The notes below the pieces were generated by a model, which was not told the DNA's origin, ran no database searches, and was given only the letters and a program-made list of their open reading frames with translations. A DNA stretch of 28,753 bases. Origin: Arcobacter sp. (GTDB lineage: Bacteria; Campylobacterota; Campylobacteria; Campylobacterales; Arcobacteraceae). Each line of letters opens with the position of its first letter. Within the stretch, counting starts at the first letter, position 1. The stretch lies in assembly GCA_965662175.1 (NCBI GenBank), contig CBFIGT010000017.1, forward strand, positions 1-28,753, given 5' to 3'. This document shows positions 6,761 to 28,753 of the stretch, one piece after another. The translations under genes and the position numbers were made by a program.

Positions 6761-7303
6761 TTGAATAAAGTTTTTATTGGGATAGTTACTTTTATAATCC
6801 TATTTTTCGCTTATGGTTTCTATGAAAATAGTACAAAAAAAAGTATGAAATCAAAAAGAGTAGAGTGCCAAAATAAAACAACTACTTTTGAACAAATAAA
6901 TAAATCAAAAAATATTACATTAGCTCAGGATTTATTACAAGCTGGTAGTTATACTATTAAATCAAATATTGAGTATTCACAAATTATGCCAACAGTTTTA
7001 ATAAACTATTTTGATGTGAAAAAAGTAGATGAGTTATTGCTAAAAAATATACCTTCAAAGAAAAGTATAAATAGTGATAAAAAGCTTTTAGTAGATTATT
7101 ATATTTATGAAAATGATAAAGAAGATACAAATAAAAAGAATGATAAAGCAAAATTATATGCTGGATATTTAGTATTTGAGTTTAAGTTTGAAAATAAAAC
7201 GCTATACAAAATACAAACTGATTATATGAAACAAGATGGAAGTGATATTGAAGAGAGAATGCAGTGTGTAATCAAATCATTTCTAACAATAAAAGGAGAA
7301 TAA
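6761..7303 (+). CDS. Hypothetical protein with N-terminal membrane anchor
   Basis: 180-aa ORF, AAGGAG RBS before the TTG start, one N-terminal hydrophobic segment; no recognised motif. Confidence 0.75.
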   Translation: MNKVFIGIVTFIILFFAYGFYENSTKKSMKSKRVECQNKTTTFEQINKSKNITLAQDLLQAGSYTIKSNIEYSQIMPTVLINYFDVKKVDELLLKNIPSKKSINSDKKLLVDYYIYENDKEDTNKKNDKAKLYAGYLVFEFKFENKTLYKIQTDYMKQDGSDIEERMQCVIKSFLTIKGE

Positions 7304-21923: not shown

Positions 21924-23273
21924 CTAAAAAAGCTCAATCATCTTAGGAACTTCATCAACAGCAAAGATTTTTAAGTTGGTTTTTATATTTGGTTTAAGAG
22001 CAACAATTGCTTTACTAATACCTTGAGCACTTGCCTCTTTTAGTCTCATATCTATTGAATAAACATCTTTTATCTCACCTGTAAGTGAAACCTCTCCAAT
22101 AAAAACAGACTCTTTTGAAATAGGTCTATCCCTAAATGAGCTAATAATAGCAGCAATAACAGCTAAATCAGCAGAACTCTCTTTGATTTTAATTCCACCA
22201 CTAATATTTATAAATACATCATAATGATTAAGTGGTAAATCAAGTTTTTTCTCTAATAGTGCTAAAAGCATATTTAATCTATTTACATCAAAACCGGTGG
22301 CACTTCTTTTTGGGTTTGGAAAAGTACTTTCACAAACTAAGGCTTGAACTTCAATAATAAGCGCCCTAGAACCCTCCATAACAACACTCAAAGAGGAACC
22401 AGCTTGGGCTTTACTTTTATCAAAAAACTTAGAAGCAATATCTTTAGCACTAATAAGTCCCTCAGCTGTCATCTCAAAAATACCTATTTCACTTGTACTT
22501 CCAAACCTATTTTTAAAACCTCGAAGCATACGAAGTTCTTTTGATGATTCACCCTCAAAATATAAAACAGTATCAACCATATGTTCTAAAACTCTAGGTC
22601 CTGCGATACTTCCATCTTTTGTAATATGCCCAATAATAAACATAGCAATATCACAATCTTTTGCTTTTCTCATAAGCTCAAAAGTTATCTCTCTAACTTG
22701 ACTAACACTTCCAGGTGCACTTGTTAGATTGCTTGAATAAATTGTCTGAATAGAGTCAATAACAACAGCTTCATAATCTTGTTTTAAAAGCTCTTCTTGT
22801 ATCTCTTCTAGTTTGATTTCAGATAATAAATAAAGATTATCACTATTTGCACCAAGTCTATTGGCTCGAAGTTTTATCTGACCAGCACTCTCTTCACCTG
22901 ATACATATAAAACCTTTTTACCACTATTTGAAATATCACCAGCAACTTTTAGTAAAAGAGTAGATTTCCCAACACCAGGACTTCCTCCAATCAAAGTCAA
23001 AGATCCAGGAACAATACCCCCACCTAAAACCAAATCAAACTCATGGTTGTTTGAGCTAAATCTAATAACATCATCTTGCTCTATTTGTGTGATAGGTTTT
23101 GCTTTTGAAGCTGTATTTATCACTTTTGAGGTCTGTTTTAAAACTTCTTGTTGTTCAGTATTTAGCTCAACAAAACTATCCCAACCACCACAGTTTGGAC
23201 ACTTTCCCAGCCATTTAGAAGCCTGCTCTCCACAATGTTGGCACTCAAAAAGAGTAGTTTTTTTCTTTGCCAT
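21924..23273 (-). CDS. radA: DNA repair protein RadA/Sms
   Basis: N-terminal CQHC...CPNC zinc finger, Walker A GSPGVGKST, KNRFG motif, Lon-like C-terminus. Confidence 0.97.
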   Translation of the reverse strand: MAKKKTTLFECQHCGEQASKWLGKCPNCGGWDSFVELNTEQQEVLKQTSKVINTASKAKPITQIEQDDVIRFSSNNHEFDLVLGGGIVPGSLTLIGGSPGVGKSTLLLKVAGDISNSGKKVLYVSGEESAGQIKLRANRLGANSDNLYLLSEIKLEEIQEELLKQDYEAVVIDSIQTIYSSNLTSAPGSVSQVREITFELMRKAKDCDIAMFIIGHITKDGSIAGPRVLEHMVDTVLYFEGESSKELRMLRGFKNRFGSTSEIGIFEMTAEGLISAKDIASKFFDKSKAQAGSSLSVVMEGSRALIIEVQALVCESTFPNPKRSATGFDVNRLNMLLALLEKKLDLPLNHYDVFINISGGIKIKESSADLAVIAAIISSFRDRPISKESVFIGEVSLTGEIKDVYSIDMRLKEASAQGISKAIVALKPNIKTNLKIFAVDEVPKMIELF

Positions 23274-23300
23274 AAAAAACCTTTTTTAATTTATGGTGTA

Positions 23301-23312
23301 ATTATAATCAAA
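23301..23312 (-). promoter_or_regulatory. Putative -10 region for radA
   Basis: Minus strand TTTGAT-TATAAT, 27 nt upstream of the radA ATG. Confidence 0.5.
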
Positions 23313-23401
23313 TTATTATTATGCCTTTAAAAATATTGCAAAATGAAATGTTTAAATTATATTAAATAATTTTATTTATAATAAGTTTCTTTTTAATTTC
23401 T

Positions 23402-23416
23402 TTTAAGTATCATAAT
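23402..23416 (+). promoter_or_regulatory. Putative sigma70 -10 region for the cas operon
   Basis: TTTAAG-TATCAT (alternatively CATAAT) preceded by periodic T-tracts; AAGG RBS at 23433-23436. Confidence 0.5.
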
Positions 23417-23442
23417 TATTAAATAAAAATTAAAGGCATAAA

Positions 23443-26400
23443 ATGTCAAAGTTAACTATTTCTATTGATATGGGTGCAAAAAATAATGGTGTATTTATTG
23501 TCAAAAGTCAAGAAAATAAAATTGTTGATAAAAAAGCTACAAATATCATAGTGGATAATATAAATTTTTCTAAAAAAAGTAGAAGAGAAAATAGACATAA
23601 AGATAGAAACTACAAAAGAAGAAAACTAGTAAAAAGACTTTTAAAAGAGTTAATTGATTTTTCAAAATATGATGATAAACAGCAAGAGCTTATCTTAGGA
23701 CTTTTAAATAATCGTGGTTATACTTTTATCTCTACATCAACTGAGTTTGAAAAATTAAATGATGAAACTATAGAGTTTATAGATGAACATTTTTTAGGCT
23801 TAAAAGCTTTAGTTACAAAAGAAGATTTTGAAAATAGAATTAGTTCATTTGAAGAGATAGAAGAGTTAAAAAAGTATATAGAATATATAAATCAAACAAT
23901 TACACTTGAAACAAAAAAGAAAAAAGCAGAGTTTTATAAAGAGTTTCAATCTACATTTACAATTATAAAAAAAGATTTAACTGAGATAAAAAAACTTTTA
24001 GTAGATATATTAAAAGAGCTTGATACAGGAAGTAAACCAAGAGTAAAATATTTTGAAGAAATAAAATCTGAAATAAACAAAGATTTTGACTTTTTGGAAG
24101 ATTTTACTAAAGCAGAGTTTTTCAATTTAATTGGAAATATTTCAAACTTTCAATTGAGGGTTTTAAGAAAATATTTTAATCAAAAATTTAATAATAAATT
24201 AGATATTGAAAAACTTGATTTAAAAGTTAGAAGGTATTTTAAGGCATTCCATTATAAAAGTGAAAAAGAAAAACTTCAAAGAAAAGAGTTATTTGATGTT
24301 TTAAATAATGAACAAGATATCTTAAACTTTTTAAAAAATACTAATCCTGAACTCACCATTCCACCTTATGAAGATATGAATAATAGAGATACTTACAAAT
24401 GTAACTCAATGCTTATAAAAGCAGCTGAGATAACAGATGAAATTAAAAGTGTGATTGATTTATTGCTTACAAAAGCAGAGTTTTCAAATCTTTTGATTAC
24501 AAATAATGAAGGTATTTTTGAAAAAGAAGAGTTAATAAAAGCAAAAGTAATTACAAACAATAAAAAGATACAAGAAGATTTTACATATTCAAAATATCTT
24601 CAACGAATACTTGATGCAACAGAAAATATTACAACTAAAGAGTTAAATCCTAGAAATGTATTTAAGCATAAAGCAAAATTTGAAAAGGGTAGCATAGATA
24701 GTATTGATAGTTTTAAAAGAGTATTTGGAGAAAAAACTTATGAAATATTAAAACCAATTGCTCAAAAGTATTATAAAGAAGAAGAGAAGATAATAAGTGG
24801 TATCTATGAAGAAAGTACATCTATTTTAGTAAAGTGTAATACAAACACACCATATAAGAATAATGCAAAACATCTACTTTTAAAACCTATTTATTCTTAC
24901 AATTTTACAAATGAGGAAGCTGATAAATTAATTGATTCTATAAAAAACTGTTATGGACTACAAAAAGCTTTTGAAAGAGTTTCAATAGAAGCAAAAAAAT
25001 ACCAAAATAGCTTTTATCACATAATTGAGGCTTGTTATAAAAATGAAAAATGCGTTGATGATAAAGATATTAAAACTATTATAAAAAATATTGAGAAAAA
25101 TTTTCAAGATTTGAAAAATATATTAAAAGATAAGAATACTTATCTAAATAATATTGAAAATGTAAATGAAGAAAATCTAAAAAGAGTTATAAATATTTTT
25201 AAACAGACTTATGAAATATTGTTTAAAGAGCTTGGAGGATTTAATAAAACTTGTAAACATTGTACTAAAGAAAATGCTATTAGAAGTGATGAAAGTCTTA
25301 CAATAGGAAAAAGAATTTTAAGTGATGTTGCAAAACCAATAGATGGTATGCTTGATATGATGTTAGATAGAGTTGCATTTGAAATAACAGAAAATATTGA
25401 AGAAAAAAATATCAAAGATATGAATGAACTTGAAATTTTACTTGAACAAAACAGATTTGAGTTTGAAGAGAATCTAAACACTATAAAAAGACAAAGTGAT
25501 CCATCTATTAAAAAATTTGATAAAGATAAATTCAAAGACAAACTAAATGTAAATATTTGTCCATATAGTGGTAAAAGTTTTGAAAAGGGTGACTTTGACC
25601 ATATATTACCACAAAGTAAAGGTGTATATAACTCTAAGGCAAATATGATTTATTGTAGTGTTGAGGGAAATCAAAAAATAAAAGGAAATAAGGACTTTAC
25701 TCTTGAAATGTTGGCAATTGAACATCTTGAAAAAGTATTTGGTAAAAAAAGTCTAGATGAAATAAAATCTATCATAAAAGAGGGAATAGAGAGTATAAAT
25801 ATTCAAGAGTTTACAAATTTTAACAATTTAAAACTTCAACAGCAAATAGCTCTAAGATATGCCTTGTTTATGAAAGATACAGCGCAGTTTAATAAAGCAT
25901 TTGAGATAGTAAGAAAAGATAAAATAAAAACTTTTTCTAATGGTACACAAAAAAGATTAGCACGATTTATTTATGAAAAACTTGCTAAAAAATTTCCAAA
26001 TTATTTAAAAGATATTGAAATAAATAGTAAAACAATTGATAATCAACTAGTAAGAACAATGAGAAACTTCTTAGCAAGTTCTAAAGAAGAGCTTCAAAAA
26101 CAAGAGATACAAAATAGTCATTCACACTGTATAGATGCAATGATTGTATTTTATTTGGCAAACTCTAAAATAAAAGGACGAGCAGATAAGCAAAAAGAGA
26201 ATATTGATTCTATAGAGTCAATATTTGATTTTGATGATATTTATTTGGAAAATAGTAAATCTAATGAGCAAATTATAAAAAAAGATACAATAAAAGATAG
26301 ATTATCAAAAAATAAAAAAATTAATTCAATTGCTTCAACAGAAGTTTTATTTAGAGAAAATGGTGTTGCTGTACATTATTTTAACATTTATGAAAAAGAT

Positions 26401-27216
26401 GGAAAGTTTTTTTATGGGGAAAGTAAAAAAAATATTTTACAATTTAAAGGTTTTAATGAAAAAATATTAGAATATTTTAAATCTTTAAATATTTTAAGTG
26501 AATTTGAAAAATACTGCTTCAATATAAATATTAATAATTTAAATAATGTCTTTTTTGAAAATAGAGATGAAGTTTTAACTAATATCTCTAAATTCAAAAA
26601 AATAGATGAATTACGATATACGACTCAAAAAAAGTCTATTATTAGTTTAGTGAATAGTTTTTTAAATCCAACATCTAATGATGAAAAAAAGTTCATCGAA
26701 ACTTTAATTGGTATAAAAAAGCTGGAAAAACTAGAACATTTTACTAAAGAAAATTTAATTTCATTTTTTCAAAAAGGTAGCAAAACTTCCCATAAACAAC
26801 TTACTTTAAGAATAGATAAAACTTGGAGTTTATTAGCTAAATATTTATCTGAAAAAAAAGAAGAGTTTTTAGTAGAAAGTATTAACAAAGATAAAAATAT
26901 TTTAACACTTGATAATTTAAAGCTAAAAGAGATACTTAGCAGGTCAGTTTTATTTAAAAGAACTCATAATACAAAAAGAAAAATAACAAATGAATATTCC
27001 TTACCTTTAAAAGATGTTACCGATAGAATGTTTATTTTAAGAAGAAAAAATAACAACAAAGATTTTATTTATCAGTATGTGTTAGCAAATAGAGAAAACT
27101 CCACAAGAAGTTTTTTTGAAGATGAATTTATACATAAACATAAAAATGATAAATTCCATAATAATATAATTCCATCTGATATTGGTTTTTATCAAAAAGC
27201 CTTTAAAAAGAACTAA
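23443..27216 (+). CDS. cas9: CRISPR-associated endonuclease Cas9, type II-B-like (Csx12), 1257 aa
   Basis: RuvC-I SIDMG (D9); Arg-rich bridge helix SRRENRHKDRNYKRRKLVKRL; II-B-type motifs NNRGYTF, LIGNISNFQLRVLRKYFN and TIPPYEDMNNR; RuvC-II E668; HNH CPYSG..DHILP (H720), N734, N743; RuvC-III H895/D898; cas1 downstream. Confidence 0.93.
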   Translation: MSKLTISIDMGAKNNGVFIVKSQENKIVDKKATNIIVDNINFSKKSRRENRHKDRNYKRRKLVKRLLKELIDFSKYDDKQQELILGLLNNRGYTFISTSTEFEKLNDETIEFIDEHFLGLKALVTKEDFENRISSFEEIEELKKYIEYINQTITLETKKKKAEFYKEFQSTFTIIKKDLTEIKKLLVDILKELDTGSKPRVKYFEEIKSEINKDFDFLEDFTKAEFFNLIGNISNFQLRVLRKYFNQKFNNKLDIEKLDLKVRRYFKAFHYKSEKEKLQRKELFDVLNNEQDILNFLKNTNPELTIPPYEDMNNRDTYKCNSMLIKAAEITDEIKSVIDLLLTKAEFSNLLITNNEGIFEKEELIKAKVITNNKKIQEDFTYSKYLQRILDATENITTKELNPRNVFKHKAKFEKGSIDSIDSFKRVFGEKTYEILKPIAQKYYKEEEKIISGIYEESTSILVKCNTNTPYKNNAKHLLLKPIYSYNFTNEEADKLIDSIKNCYGLQKAFERVSIEAKKYQNSFYHIIEACYKNEKCVDDKDIKTIIKNIEKNFQDLKNILKDKNTYLNNIENVNEENLKRVINIFKQTYEILFKELGGFNKTCKHCTKENAIRSDESLTIGKRILSDVAKPIDGMLDMMLDRVAFEITENIEEKNIKDMNELEILLEQNRFEFEENLNTIKRQSDPSIKKFDKDKFKDKLNVNICPYSGKSFEKGDFDHILPQSKGVYNSKANMIYCSVEGNQKIKGNKDFTLEMLAIEHLEKVFGKKSLDEIKSIIKEGIESINIQEFTNFNNLKLQQQIALRYALFMKDTAQFNKAFEIVRKDKIKTFSNGTQKRLARFIYEKLAKKFPNYLKDIEINSKTIDNQLVRTMRNFLASSKEELQKQEIQNSHSHCIDAMIVFYLANSKIKGRADKQKENIDSIESIFDFDDIYLENSKSNEQIIKKDTIKDRLSKNKKINSIASTEVLFRENGVAVHYFNIYEKDGKFFYGESKKNILQFKGFNEKILEYFKSLNILSEFEKYCFNININNLNNVFFENRDEVLTNISKFKKIDELRYTTQKKSIISLVNSFLNPTSNDEKKFIETLIGIKKLEKLEHFTKENLISFFQKGSKTSHKQLTLRIDKTWSLLAKYLSEKKEEFLVESINKDKNILTLDNLKLKEILSRSVLFKRTHNTKRKITNEYSLPLKDVTDRMFILRRKNNNKDFIYQYVLANRENSTRSFFEDEFIHKHKNDKFHNNIIPSDIGFYQKAFKKN

Positions 27217-27217
27217 T

Positions 27218-28072
27218 ATGTCAAATATAGTAATCTACAATGATGGAGAACTAGAACTAGATGTTTCACTCAATGCTGAGACTATTTGGCTTACCCAAAA
27301 GCAACTCTGTGAACTTTTTGGTAGAGATAAATCTGTTATTTCAAGACATATAAGAAATATATTTAAAGATAATGAACTTGATAAAAATTCAACTGTTGCA
27401 AAAAATGCAACAGTTCAAAAAGAGGGAGATAGAGAGATTGTTAGAGAAATAGAATTTTATAATCTTGATATGATTATTTCAGTAGGCTATAGAGTAAATT
27501 CATTAAAAGCCACAAAATTTAGACAATGGGCTACAAAGATTTTAAAAAATTATATAGTAAATGGCTACTCAATAAATAGTGAAAAAATCACAAATGAAAG
27601 ATTTGTATCTTTAGAAAATGATGTGAATTTTTTAAAAACTAAAATAAATAATATCTCAAATCATATTGAAGATAGAACAATGCAAATAAAGCAAGGTGTC
27701 TTTTATGATGGAGAAATATTTGATGCTTATGCATTTATATCTAGTTTGATTAAAAATGCAAAAAAAGAGATTATTTTAGTTGATAATTATATTGATGAGT
27801 CCACTCTAACACTTTTTTCAAAAAATAAAAATATTAAACTAACAATATATACTAAAAACTTGAGTAAAGAATTAAAATTAGATATCCAAAAATACAATAA
27901 ACAATATAATAATCTTGAAGTTAAAATTTGTAAAAATTTTCATGATAGATTTCTAATCATAGATGAAAATGATATATATCATATAGGGGCTAGTTTAAAA
28001 GACTTGGGTACTAAAGTTTTTGCATTTAGTAAAATGCAAATAGATACAAAAATATTTTTACAACAGTTATGA
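27218..28072 (+). CDS. RhuM-family DNA-binding domain fused to a C-terminal PLD-like (HxR) domain, 284 aa
   Basis: TIWLTQKQLCELF..VISRHIRNIF and YNLDMIISVGYRVNS..ATKFRQWAT (RhuM); AKKEIILVDNYID and FHDRFLIID..YHIGASLKDLG (PLD-like). Start revised from TTG 27182 to ATG 27218. Confidence 0.85.
   Translation: MSNIVIYNDGELELDVSLNAETIWLTQKQLCELFGRDKSVISRHIRNIFKDNELDKNSTVAKNATVQKEGDREIVREIEFYNLDMIISVGYRVNSLKATKFRQWATKILKNYIVNGYSINSEKITNERFVSLENDVNFLKTKINNISNHIEDRTMQIKQGVFYDGEIFDAYAFISSLIKNAKKEIILVDNYIDESTLTLFSKNKNIKLTIYTKNLSKELKLDIQKYNKQYNNLEVKICKNFHDRFLIIDENDIYHIGASLKDLGTKVFAFSKMQIDTKIFLQQL
27391..27415. repeat. Perfect 10-bp inverted repeat with 5-nt spacer inside the RhuM-domain coding sequence
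   Basis: AACTGTTGCA-AAAAA-TGCAACAGTT, spanning codons S58-V66 (STVAKNATV). Confidence 0.95.
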
Positions 28073-28753
28073 AACATATAATTGTAAACAACTATGGTAT
28101 GTTTTTAGGTTTAAAATCTCAAAGATTAACCATAAAGCAAGATGGCTCTATAATAAATGAAGTTGCACTAAATAGAATAAAAACCATTCAAGTATTATCT
28201 CGTGGTATATCTTTATCAAGTGATTTAATAAATTCTTGTTCTAAAAGAGGTATAAAAATATTTTTCAATAGTTTTAATTCTTTTTCAGCTTTACATACTC
28301 TTTATGAACATAAATCTGTACTAGTAAGAAAAAATCAATTTGAAGTTTGTGATGATATTCGTGGTTTGGAGTTAGCAAGAAAACTAATAATTGGAAAACT
28401 AAAAAATCAAAGAGCAACTATCCTTTATAGTAGTAGAAATATAAATGATGAGAAAAAAAACAAAGTGATAGAAAACTTTGATAAATCAATACTTCAACTA
28501 AAAAATAAAACAGATATCTCAAAAGAGTTTATTTTAGGAATAGAGGGTGTTAGTGCAAGTTTTTATTTTGAGTATTTTAGGCATTTTGAACTTTTTCCTA
28601 AAAGCTTTGAGTATCGAACAAAAAGATACTCAGAAGAGATTACAAATATAGCATTAAATTATGCTTATGCAATATTATTTAATTTTATATATAAGTCATG
28701 TATAAATGCTGGACTTGAACCTTATTATGGCGTTTTACACAGTGTAAGAAGTG
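28069..28753 (+). CDS. cas1: CRISPR-associated integrase Cas1 (partial, runs off the window end)
   Basis: Not in the ORF track. Frame is open for 228 codons: MKHIIVNNYGMFLGLKSQRL...GISLSSDLI...GKLKNQ...ILGIEG (E159)...NIALNYAYAIL...AGLEPYYGVLH (H224). ATGA overlap with the upstream stop. Confidence 0.95.
   Translation, partial: MKHIIVNNYGMFLGLKSQRLTIKQDGSIINEVALNRIKTIQVLSRGISLSSDLINSCSKRGIKIFFNSFNSFSALHTLYEHKSVLVRKNQFEVCDDIRGLELARKLIIGKLKNQRATILYSSRNINDEKKNKVIENFDKSILQLKNKTDISKEFILGIEGVSASFYFEYFRHFELFPKSFEYRTKRYSEEITNIALNYAYAILFNFIYKSCINAGLEPYYGVLHSVRS

Follow-up and report, generated by a model that had tools for sequence, protein, structure and literature searches.

Candidate anti-phage genes are found embedded in the operons of other defense systems. 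The PADLOC phage-defense candidate (PDC) genes are defined by such embedding, in BREX, DISARM, and type I restriction-modification (R-M) loci (bioRxiv 10.1101/2024.01.29.577857), and one gene of the PDC-S05 type alone lowered T7 and T5 plating about 1000-fold in E. coli B (PMC12881386). RhuM-like genes in R-M loci have been proposed as toxins (PMC3710099; PMC9881135), and a RhuM gene lies between cas9 and cas1 in the type II-C systems of most of 40 B. fragilis strains (PMC5704556). Here we describe a gene at the same junction of a type II-B cas operon, at the end of a 28,753-nucleotide contig of Arcobacter sp. (CBFIGT010000017.1, the whole of which is called the window). This slot gene encodes a protein with a RhuM head, a coiled coil, and a PLD-fold tail. 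An earlier note on this DNA had proposed that it is an undescribed Cas9 ancillary factor, which it probably is not. It belongs to a widespread RhuM-PLD (PDC-S05) family and occupies a swappable slot, and we think it reasonably probable that it serves there as an anti-phage cassette which limits itself, works independently, and merely borrows its promoter from cas9.

Like PDC-S05 genes, the slot gene matches the family model over its full length and stands as a single gene inside another defense operon. However, the PDC set was drawn from BREX, DISARM, and type I R-M loci, whereas the host here is a type II-B cas operon; the word CRISPR is absent from the main text of the preprint. For the type II-C comparison we surveyed the genus of a Bacteroides sp. 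genome, in which cas9 was present in 32 of 101 genomes; 20 junctions were taken, 19 with cas1, and three of these 19 hold a canonical RhuM gene of 332 amino acids (aa), near-identical to one another. These three genes, from another phylum, share the slot, head, helix class, and palindrome arms of the window gene, but their proteins match the profile strongly over the head only and do not carry the HDR motif described below. The word 'undescribed' in the earlier note thus has to be narrowed: RhuM in the II-C cas9-cas1 slot was already known from B. fragilis (PMC5704556), and what sets the present case apart is the II-B host and the PLD tail. No description of RhuM-PLD in type II-B systems, or of the palindrome, turned up among the listed titles and passages of a literature search that did not extend to subscription journals or bioRxiv supplements, including the PDC tables, where one may exist.

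Other accessory genes resemble the slot gene in part. The gene for PcrIIC1 is likewise an accessory of type II loci, and its product has a nuclease-like fold, but this is a PIN domain, and PcrIIC1 binds a conserved CTH domain of its Cas9s (PMC13153721; PMC12669027), whereas the slot protein has a PLD fold and no Cas9 signature was found; neither a dedicated Cas9 element nor confinement to cas9 loci with Cas9 co-evolution was found here. CRISIS genes are defense genes nested in a cas operon as well, but in their type I-C setting they have a promoter to themselves and are accompanied by a solitary repeat and a target that matches (bioRxiv 10.1101/2024.12.27.630466); none of these was found at the window locus. 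BstA acts in abortive infection, and its own locus contains the DNA element aba, which is cognate to it and allele-specific; the pair offers an analogy for the helix-matched palindromes below. Unlike the slot protein, BstA is prophage-borne, belongs to a different family, and is without a PLD tail, and aba protects the replicating prophage (PMC8585504).

The cas9-cas1 junction in related loci

Relatives of the window Cas9 were found in 11 of the 183 other genomes of its family, eight of which can be scored at the junction and three of which are cut or remnant. Twenty metagenome Cas9 loci reduce to 15 that are distinct and scorable (three cut loci and one duplicate of G201 were dropped, and L059 and L074 were merged), and a phylum-wide search adds one more, for a total of 25 loci with the window; a separate genome-contig scan with Cas9 as query gave nothing. 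A RhuM-PLD gene fills the slot at six of them: the window, G030, L060, L062, L067, and, truncated, G155. Elsewhere cas9 overlaps cas1 (10/25), a spacer of 35-71 bp lies between the two (3/25), the slot holds other cargo (HEPN-MNT, MNT with a HEPN remnant, and Fic; 3/25), or the adaptation genes are missing and there is no cargo (3/25). In ten more distant II-B loci RhuM-PLD was not found, and cas9 overlaps cas1 in all ten. Because the layout recurs in five other loci, and so in six of 25 related ones, the slot gene is more than a single accident of this genome. The earlier note had suggested such a survey: it recovers the gene repeatedly, with other toxin-like cargo in the same slot, and it also turns up close relatives in which cas9 abuts cas1 directly, as in L063, whose Cas9 is 99.5% identical to that of L062 over the first 3 kb.

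Pairs of closely related loci show how the junction changes. L062 and L063 are 99.5% identical for 3032 nt, after which the Cas9 C-terminal module and the slot both differ; the breakpoint is near cas9 nt 2820, directly after the RuvC-III motif. The L062 slot gene, together with 33 nt of a long-type cas9 end, is 91.6% identical to that of G030. The alignment of G018 with G030 continues on either side of a gap of about 790 nt, and the 5' end retained in G018 matches slot genes at 9-10 of 12 bases after the ATG, so that this remnant is likely a deletion scar. The slot gene is intact in L060, L062, and L067 despite a cas1 that is stopped, deleted, or broken. Identity of the window Cas9 to those of G018, G030, and G155 falls from 75-85% to 15-26% past residue 1000, while identity to that of L062 stays at 71-76%. 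The short C-terminus does not reflect a truncated Cas9, as it is a full alternative module common to L062, L066, L073, L078, and G032. Within this II-B clade the module is naturally swapped between a short (about 265 aa) and a long (about 355 aa) form on near-identical cores, which likely amounts to switching of the protospacer-adjacent motif (PAM). The slot gene occurs with both forms, and the window combines the short module with a junction that is identical over 21 nt to that of the long-module locus L060; in RhuM-bearing loci the cas9 end, or its remnant, reads AAG(G/A)ACTAA. Judged from these alignments, the slot gains, loses, and exchanges its content, other toxin-like cargo included, irrespective of the Cas9 core, of the C-terminal module, and of whether cas1 is intact.

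On a Cas9 core tree of 23 sequences (three partial ones, including that of RhuM-bearing L067, were left out), the RhuM label requires five changes for five rows, and a single RhuM clade is rejected (p-AU, from the approximately unbiased test, 7e-74); the slot gene therefore does not follow Cas9, contrary to the co-evolution that the earlier note had thought to look for. No Cas9 insertion marks the presence of the slot gene: comparing five RhuM-locus Cas9s with 14 others, no column is filled only in the former and one column discriminates (P 0.14). The cas1 tree is too poorly resolved to bear on co-evolution. In the family tree, five slot copies group with one non-cas copy, and the window copy pairs with a gene of G151 that lies behind radA. 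Slot copies as a single clade are rejected for the body of the gene (p-AU 0.003), though not for the PLD tail alone (0.24), and seven residues common to the slot copies are also present in non-cas copies, for example L031, L045, and L050. These data would be best explained if the gene was inserted once, long ago, after which alleles were exchanged and the gene was repeatedly lost. The nearest RhuM-PLD relative of the window copy stands directly behind radA (L030:1489-3728, G151), and radA (window 21924-23273) also flanks the window cas9, which is probably a coincidence.

Outside cas operons the family is abundant. At E 1e-20, and with partial matches counted, it is detected in 128 of the 184 genomes in the window's family, with at least about 115 near-full-length copies (counted by eye) among the 150 matches listed for these 184 genomes; it also matches 7985 of the 7999 candidates scored in a protein database and 121 plasmid records. 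The window genome itself carries two further full-length copies (57% and 59% identical), a copy of the tail with an ORF6N head, and a canonical RhuM, none of which adjoins cas genes. Among the 29 family loci that score best apart from the window (1.5-kb flanks), one has cas genes beside it, which leaves the nearest homologs in unrelated contexts in 28 of 29 cases; none of 80 loci found with a Bacteroides homolog does (flanks up to 6 kb; the cas1 profile used does detect II-C cas1). Neighbors include radA, modABC, nif, arginase, CcdAB, SIR2, and a KAP NTPase, among others. Tandem RhuM-PLD runs with differing helix and palindrome alleles also occur (L056:504-3290 and L037:1501-3216); of these, the run in G066 has three full copies and part of a fourth, and the one in G120 has two. 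Between the G030 and L062 slot genes the nonsynonymous rate (dN) is 0.045 and the synonymous rate (dS) 0.27, and by this ratio (about 0.17) the slot gene is under purifying selection at the junction.

Several other features of these junctions were observed. Short repeated, partly palindromic elements follow the slot Fic gene of L073 (4890-5030). A similar 71-bp spacer in L068 (5720-5830) may be the scar of a lost Fic cassette; the cas1 genes of L068 and L073 are sisters. In the distant II-B locus L087 (6718-8778), three genes are embedded between cas2 and cas4: one for a DNA methyltransferase, an unknown one, and another for a methylase.

The slot protein and the palindrome in its gene

The RhuM domain (PF13310) covers residues 58-129 (E 4.5e-25), and the PADLOC model PDLC04879 for PDC-S05 spans residues 2-283 of 284 (E 1.3e-106). 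An AlphaFold model based on 67 sequences (mean confidence, pLDDT, 75.9) comprises two short helices and a beta hairpin, then a helix of 55 residues, and an alpha/beta tail. This tail (residues ~164-284) has a PLD fold, with Z scores of 12.7-11.2 to FAM83, NucT, SauUSI, and Nuc (NucT: Z 11.7, root-mean-square deviation [rmsd] 2.9, 117 aligned residues; Nuc: Z 11.2). The domain call of the earlier note, RhuM plus a PLD-like part, thus stands. The canonical PLD consensus is HxK(x4)D(x6)GSxN. In the slot protein H242, R244, D249, S259, K261, and D262 are invariant across the 67 sequences, but the motif reads H242-D-R244, D249, G257-A-S259-L-K261, in which His and Asp are kept, Arg replaces Lys, and Lys stands in place of the absent Asn. 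The motif of MITD1 is of the HDR type, and the slot-protein motif lies nearer to this type than to canonical HKD; a fold match to MITD1 was also seen. Because of this departure from the consensus, we regard nuclease activity as likely rather than established. Identity to TrmBL2 and to the PLD nucleases Nuc, NucT, SauUSI, and Zucchini is 12-17%; TrmBL2 (PDB 5BOX/5BPD) has the same order of DNA-binding head, long helix, and PLD-fold domain. ESM Atlas returned unnamed clusters only, with PLDc_2 and MIT_C below 0.9, and PDB sequence searches with both alignments gave no match.

The head, modeled alone (pLDDT 86.5), weakly matches the DNA-binding domain of pSK1 Par (Z 7.2, rmsd 1.8, 52 residues), and Foldseek with the head alone gave no match at E 0.001 or better. 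Because its structural neighbors are weak, a winged helix-turn-helix is a prediction from the model.

Just downstream of the codons for the predicted helix-turn-helix, the terminator scan flagged an inverted repeat. Across 33 distinct family sequences, 305 of 330 cells are paired at this register, with 2-4 pair types at most positions; slid registers give 14-27%, and the best unrelated centre 63%. When the best 25-mer within a short search window is taken, 8 or more of the 10 pairs form in all 114 family genes compared, against 0 of 72 for a control segment. The arms vary with the predicted DNA-reading helix. When genes are sorted into six helix classes (assigned after seeing the genes, with 25/39 and 52/75 sorted and the rest left out), arm bases across phyla are 90% identical within a class and 45% between classes, compared with 54% and 50% for the adjacent linker and 48% within a class for helix third positions. 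Fourfold third positions agree in 689 of 691 cases in the arms versus 177 of 543 in the helix codons, although the pairs compared are not independent, and symmetry and conserved wing residues could give part of the signal. The arms follow helix class across different C-terminal domains, too. Since the arms change with the helix, the palindrome is likely, on this comparative evidence, a self-operator of the slot gene. Its centre varies and is found in both orientations, which suits double-stranded DNA.

The window palindrome is the only perfect copy in its genome. No copy was found at the window cas9 promoter, where the best site has 11 of 20 arm bases (shuffle P 0.84). A role as regulator of the cas9 promoter was rejected, as no palindrome copy lies there in five loci; the best site, in L062, has 13/20 (P 0.03, uncorrected). 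A DUF1016/YhcG gene near the paralog on contig C80 (L002:1179-1829) also has a 9-pair, in-frame palindrome, near codon 98.

Layout of the locus

The window is a whole contig, and apart from the cas operon it carries housekeeping genes. The earlier note's description of a II-B-like cas operon with an extra gene between cas9 and cas1 is borne out by the coordinates, the Cas9b match, and the junctions (Table 1).

Table 1. Features at the cas end of the window (positions in the window)
Feature	Position	Strand	Basis or comment
Divergent radA/cas9 intergenic region, presumed cas operon promoter	23274..23442	+	Sole non-coding room 5' of cas9
cas9, type II-B (Csx12/Cas9b), 1257 aa	23443..27216	+	Profile matches, catalytic motifs; core 70-78% identical to nearest relatives
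Short swapped Cas9 C-terminal module, likely PAM-interacting region	26290..27216, start approximate (~residue 950)	+	Identity drop
Slot junction: cas9 stop, 1 base, slot gene start	27207..27227	+	21-nt exact match to L060 junction
RhuM-head/coiled-coil/PLD-fold gene, 284 aa (PADLOC PDC-S05, PDLC04879)	27218..28072	+	Full-length hidden Markov model match
Predicted helix-turn-helix, helices 27-34 and 38-50; the second is variable, presumed DNA-reading	27296..27367	+	Head model
25-bp intragenic palindrome, 10-bp arms and 5-bp centre, codons 58-66; likely self-operator	27391..27415	.	Pairing conservation
PLD-fold tail (aa 165-284); non-canonical H-D-R...D...GxSLK motif at 27941-28006	27710..28072	+	Structure match
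cas1 5' part, 228 codons, gene cut by contig end	28069..28753	+	PF01867 E 9.5e-43

Cas9 matches the PADLOC Cas9b model (E 4e-83) and Pfam Csx12, with PF21069 above its cut-off; TIGR03031 scores 250 bits, below the cut-off of 399, as does the relative G018. The RuvC and HNH motifs are present and the sequence falls in the Csx12/Cas9b branch of type II-B. Between the window cas1 and those of related II-B loci, identity is 82-87%. Another contig (C66) has an array of 10 repeats at its end, whereas neither cas2 nor cas4 nor the remainder of cas1 turned up in the assembly when a relative's proteins served as queries. In the relatives G030 and G018 the order of cas1-cas2-cas4, trans-activating CRISPR RNA (tracrRNA), and array is complete. 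In most loci of the clade, a likely tracrRNA lies between cas4 and the array (L018, L019): a conserved anti-repeat accompanied by hairpins, which points the same way as the array and is on the other strand from the cas genes. Upstream of cas9 in L062 (~6965-6990), and likewise in L063, there is an 11-base match to the end of the CRISPR repeat, which was not seen in the window.

The cas9 stop and the slot-gene ATG are set apart by the single base T27217, and the slot-gene TGA shares the ATGA (28069-28072) with the cas1 ATG. A longer slot gene from the in-frame TTG at 27182 (296 aa) was rejected, as homologs begin at the ATG instead. Because the genes are so tightly packed, we infer that the slot gene is co-transcribed with the cas genes, and coupling of the three genes, as the earlier note had it, is likely. 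A consensus scan gave 53 promoter-like sites against 41.9 +/- 8.0 in shuffles, and the terminator scan found no terminator on the + strand. An assembly artifact was also considered and rejected: small contigs from four public runs cover parts of cas9, the slot gene, and cas1 with zero differing letters. One of them crosses the cas9 junction, with only 21 letters beyond it, and does not make a formal bridge. No RNA dataset was listed among those that contain this sequence.

Explanations for the slot gene and their meaning

If the slot gene is an independent cassette, it could work as follows. Recombination between flanking cas sequences would move the cassette. The protein would dimerize via its long helix and PLD tail, and two heads would bind the palindrome inside their own gene, capping expression from whatever promoter the cassette lands behind, or parking the nuclease. 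Infection might then release the PLD dimer to cut nucleic acid and abort the infection, with no need for Cas9 or guide RNA; lower transcription of cas1-cas2-cas4 would be a possible side effect. Several observations weigh against this account. Of the tested PDC-S05 gene, PMC12881386 names only the RhuM domain, so that it may or may not have the PLD tail. With a non-canonical PLD motif the putative nuclease activity is unsure, and TrmBL2, which has the same domain order, is a chromatin protein. Mismatches in the palindrome are G-T in 13 cases versus A-C in six, so that it may instead form an RNA hairpin. Cas1 is broken at four of six RhuM loci versus four of 19 others (one-sided Fisher ~0.06 by hand, post hoc, among kin that are not independent). 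The six slot copies fall within one 13-row subclade of the 39-row family tree (96/94), and the gene is kept here across Cas9s that are only 65-78% alike, so that the slot may have been filled once and long retained. Finally, a RhuM-head gene fills the same slot independently in II-C, with the helix class and palindrome arms of the window, and this convergence could mean a CRISPR-specific role.

Such a role could lie in transcription. The self-operator could be a roadblock that lowers cas1-cas2-cas4 while sparing cas9, damping spacer acquisition until infection titrates the protein. The palindrome lies 3' of cas9 and 5' of cas1 on the same inferred transcript, the helix and arms are coupled (arms 90% identical within a class across phyla, versus 54% for the linker), and RhuM heads fill the slot in both II-B and II-C; as their tails differ, the head and palindrome would be the shared part. 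However, L060, L062, and L067 retain an intact slot gene although their cas1 is dead and nothing is left to regulate, the gene is absent from 19 of 25 loci, and Fic and HEPN-MNT cargo occupy the same slot. Moreover, the palindrome is present in 114 of 114 family members whatever their context and therefore did not evolve for CRISPR. We consider a roadblock unlikely. In its broader form, RhuM cassettes would be plug-in dimmers of type II operons, recruited independently in II-B and II-C, that keep interference on and throttle acquisition until phage DNA titrates the protein and frees the PLD nuclease; this, too, is an idea with an outside chance of being right. Another alternative, to which we give only a small chance, is that the gene, abundant and mobile, has no defense role here: it would have arrived in the operon once and would now ride along with recombining cas segments as a neutral or selfish passenger. 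Its many copies (at least about 115 near-full-length among the matches listed) beside housekeeping genes such as radA, modABC, and nif, and its repeated loss (the G018 scar and the G155 truncation), are what a passenger would leave. Yet the frames are open in five of six slot copies, dN is well below dS, the PLD-motif residues are invariant, and defense was measured for one PDC-S05 gene (PMC12881386).

The main idea of the earlier note amounts to a partner of the Pro-CRISPR type, which would bind Cas9 or Cas1-Cas2 and raise the level of interference or adaptation. Both junctions are tight, the gene recurs at 6/25 loci, and the slot copies cluster in one subclade, all of which a partner would explain. 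Nevertheless we judge it improbable: the slot gene shows no co-phylogeny with Cas9, nothing in Cas9 corresponds to the CTH domain that serves PcrIIC1 (PMC13153721), the seven slot-copy residues recur in non-cas copies, and the slot copies are not one clade over the body of the gene, even if the PLD tail alone does not reject this. Two of the three signs that the note had named against its proposal were seen: cas9 directly abutting cas1 in close relatives, and unrelated contexts for the nearest homologs. An intact slot gene beside a stopped, deleted, or broken cas1 speaks against an adaptation helper in particular. Among the options that the note had listed, then, an abortive-type arm fits best, as an independent one, and an operon regulator is possible, whereas a Cas9 cofactor and an adaptation helper are unlikely. 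The poorest prospect, in our estimation, is a guard supervised by CRISPR in the manner of CRISIS or CreTA, in which Cas9 with a short-match guide would repress the shared promoter and an anti-CRISPR would unleash the putative nuclease. Defense genes in type I-C cas operons are controlled in this way (bioRxiv 10.1101/2024.12.27.630466), and if cas9 regulates itself, a gene that shares its transcript would be regulated along with it. But neither junction is long enough to contain a solitary repeat, and when repeat-adjacent guides were compared with the cas9 promoter at 15 loci (14 with detectable repeats), counting exact 3'-anchored matches only, none extended beyond 9 nt or did better than shuffles. 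The lowest P, 0.06, came from a locus without the slot gene. In the window, where the tracrRNA region and part of the array are unassembled, no spacer has a 3'-anchored match of more than 7 nt to the cas9 promoter region.

The slot gene, as a candidate defense gene, extends the principle of defense genes embedded in defense operons to type II-B CRISPR-Cas, and it shows that the cas9-cas1 junction can hold cargo, which gets reshuffled along with the Cas9 C-terminal module yet independently of it. It also carries a caution for the mining of accessory genes, in that a gene may be tightly coupled to cas9 and still not encode a partner of Cas9. If the roadblock were true, it would represent a new way of uncoupling adaptation from interference within one operon. 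The near-isogenic natural pairs (L062/L063 and G030/G018), along with the helix-palindrome code, make the long-unexplained function of RhuM directly testable.

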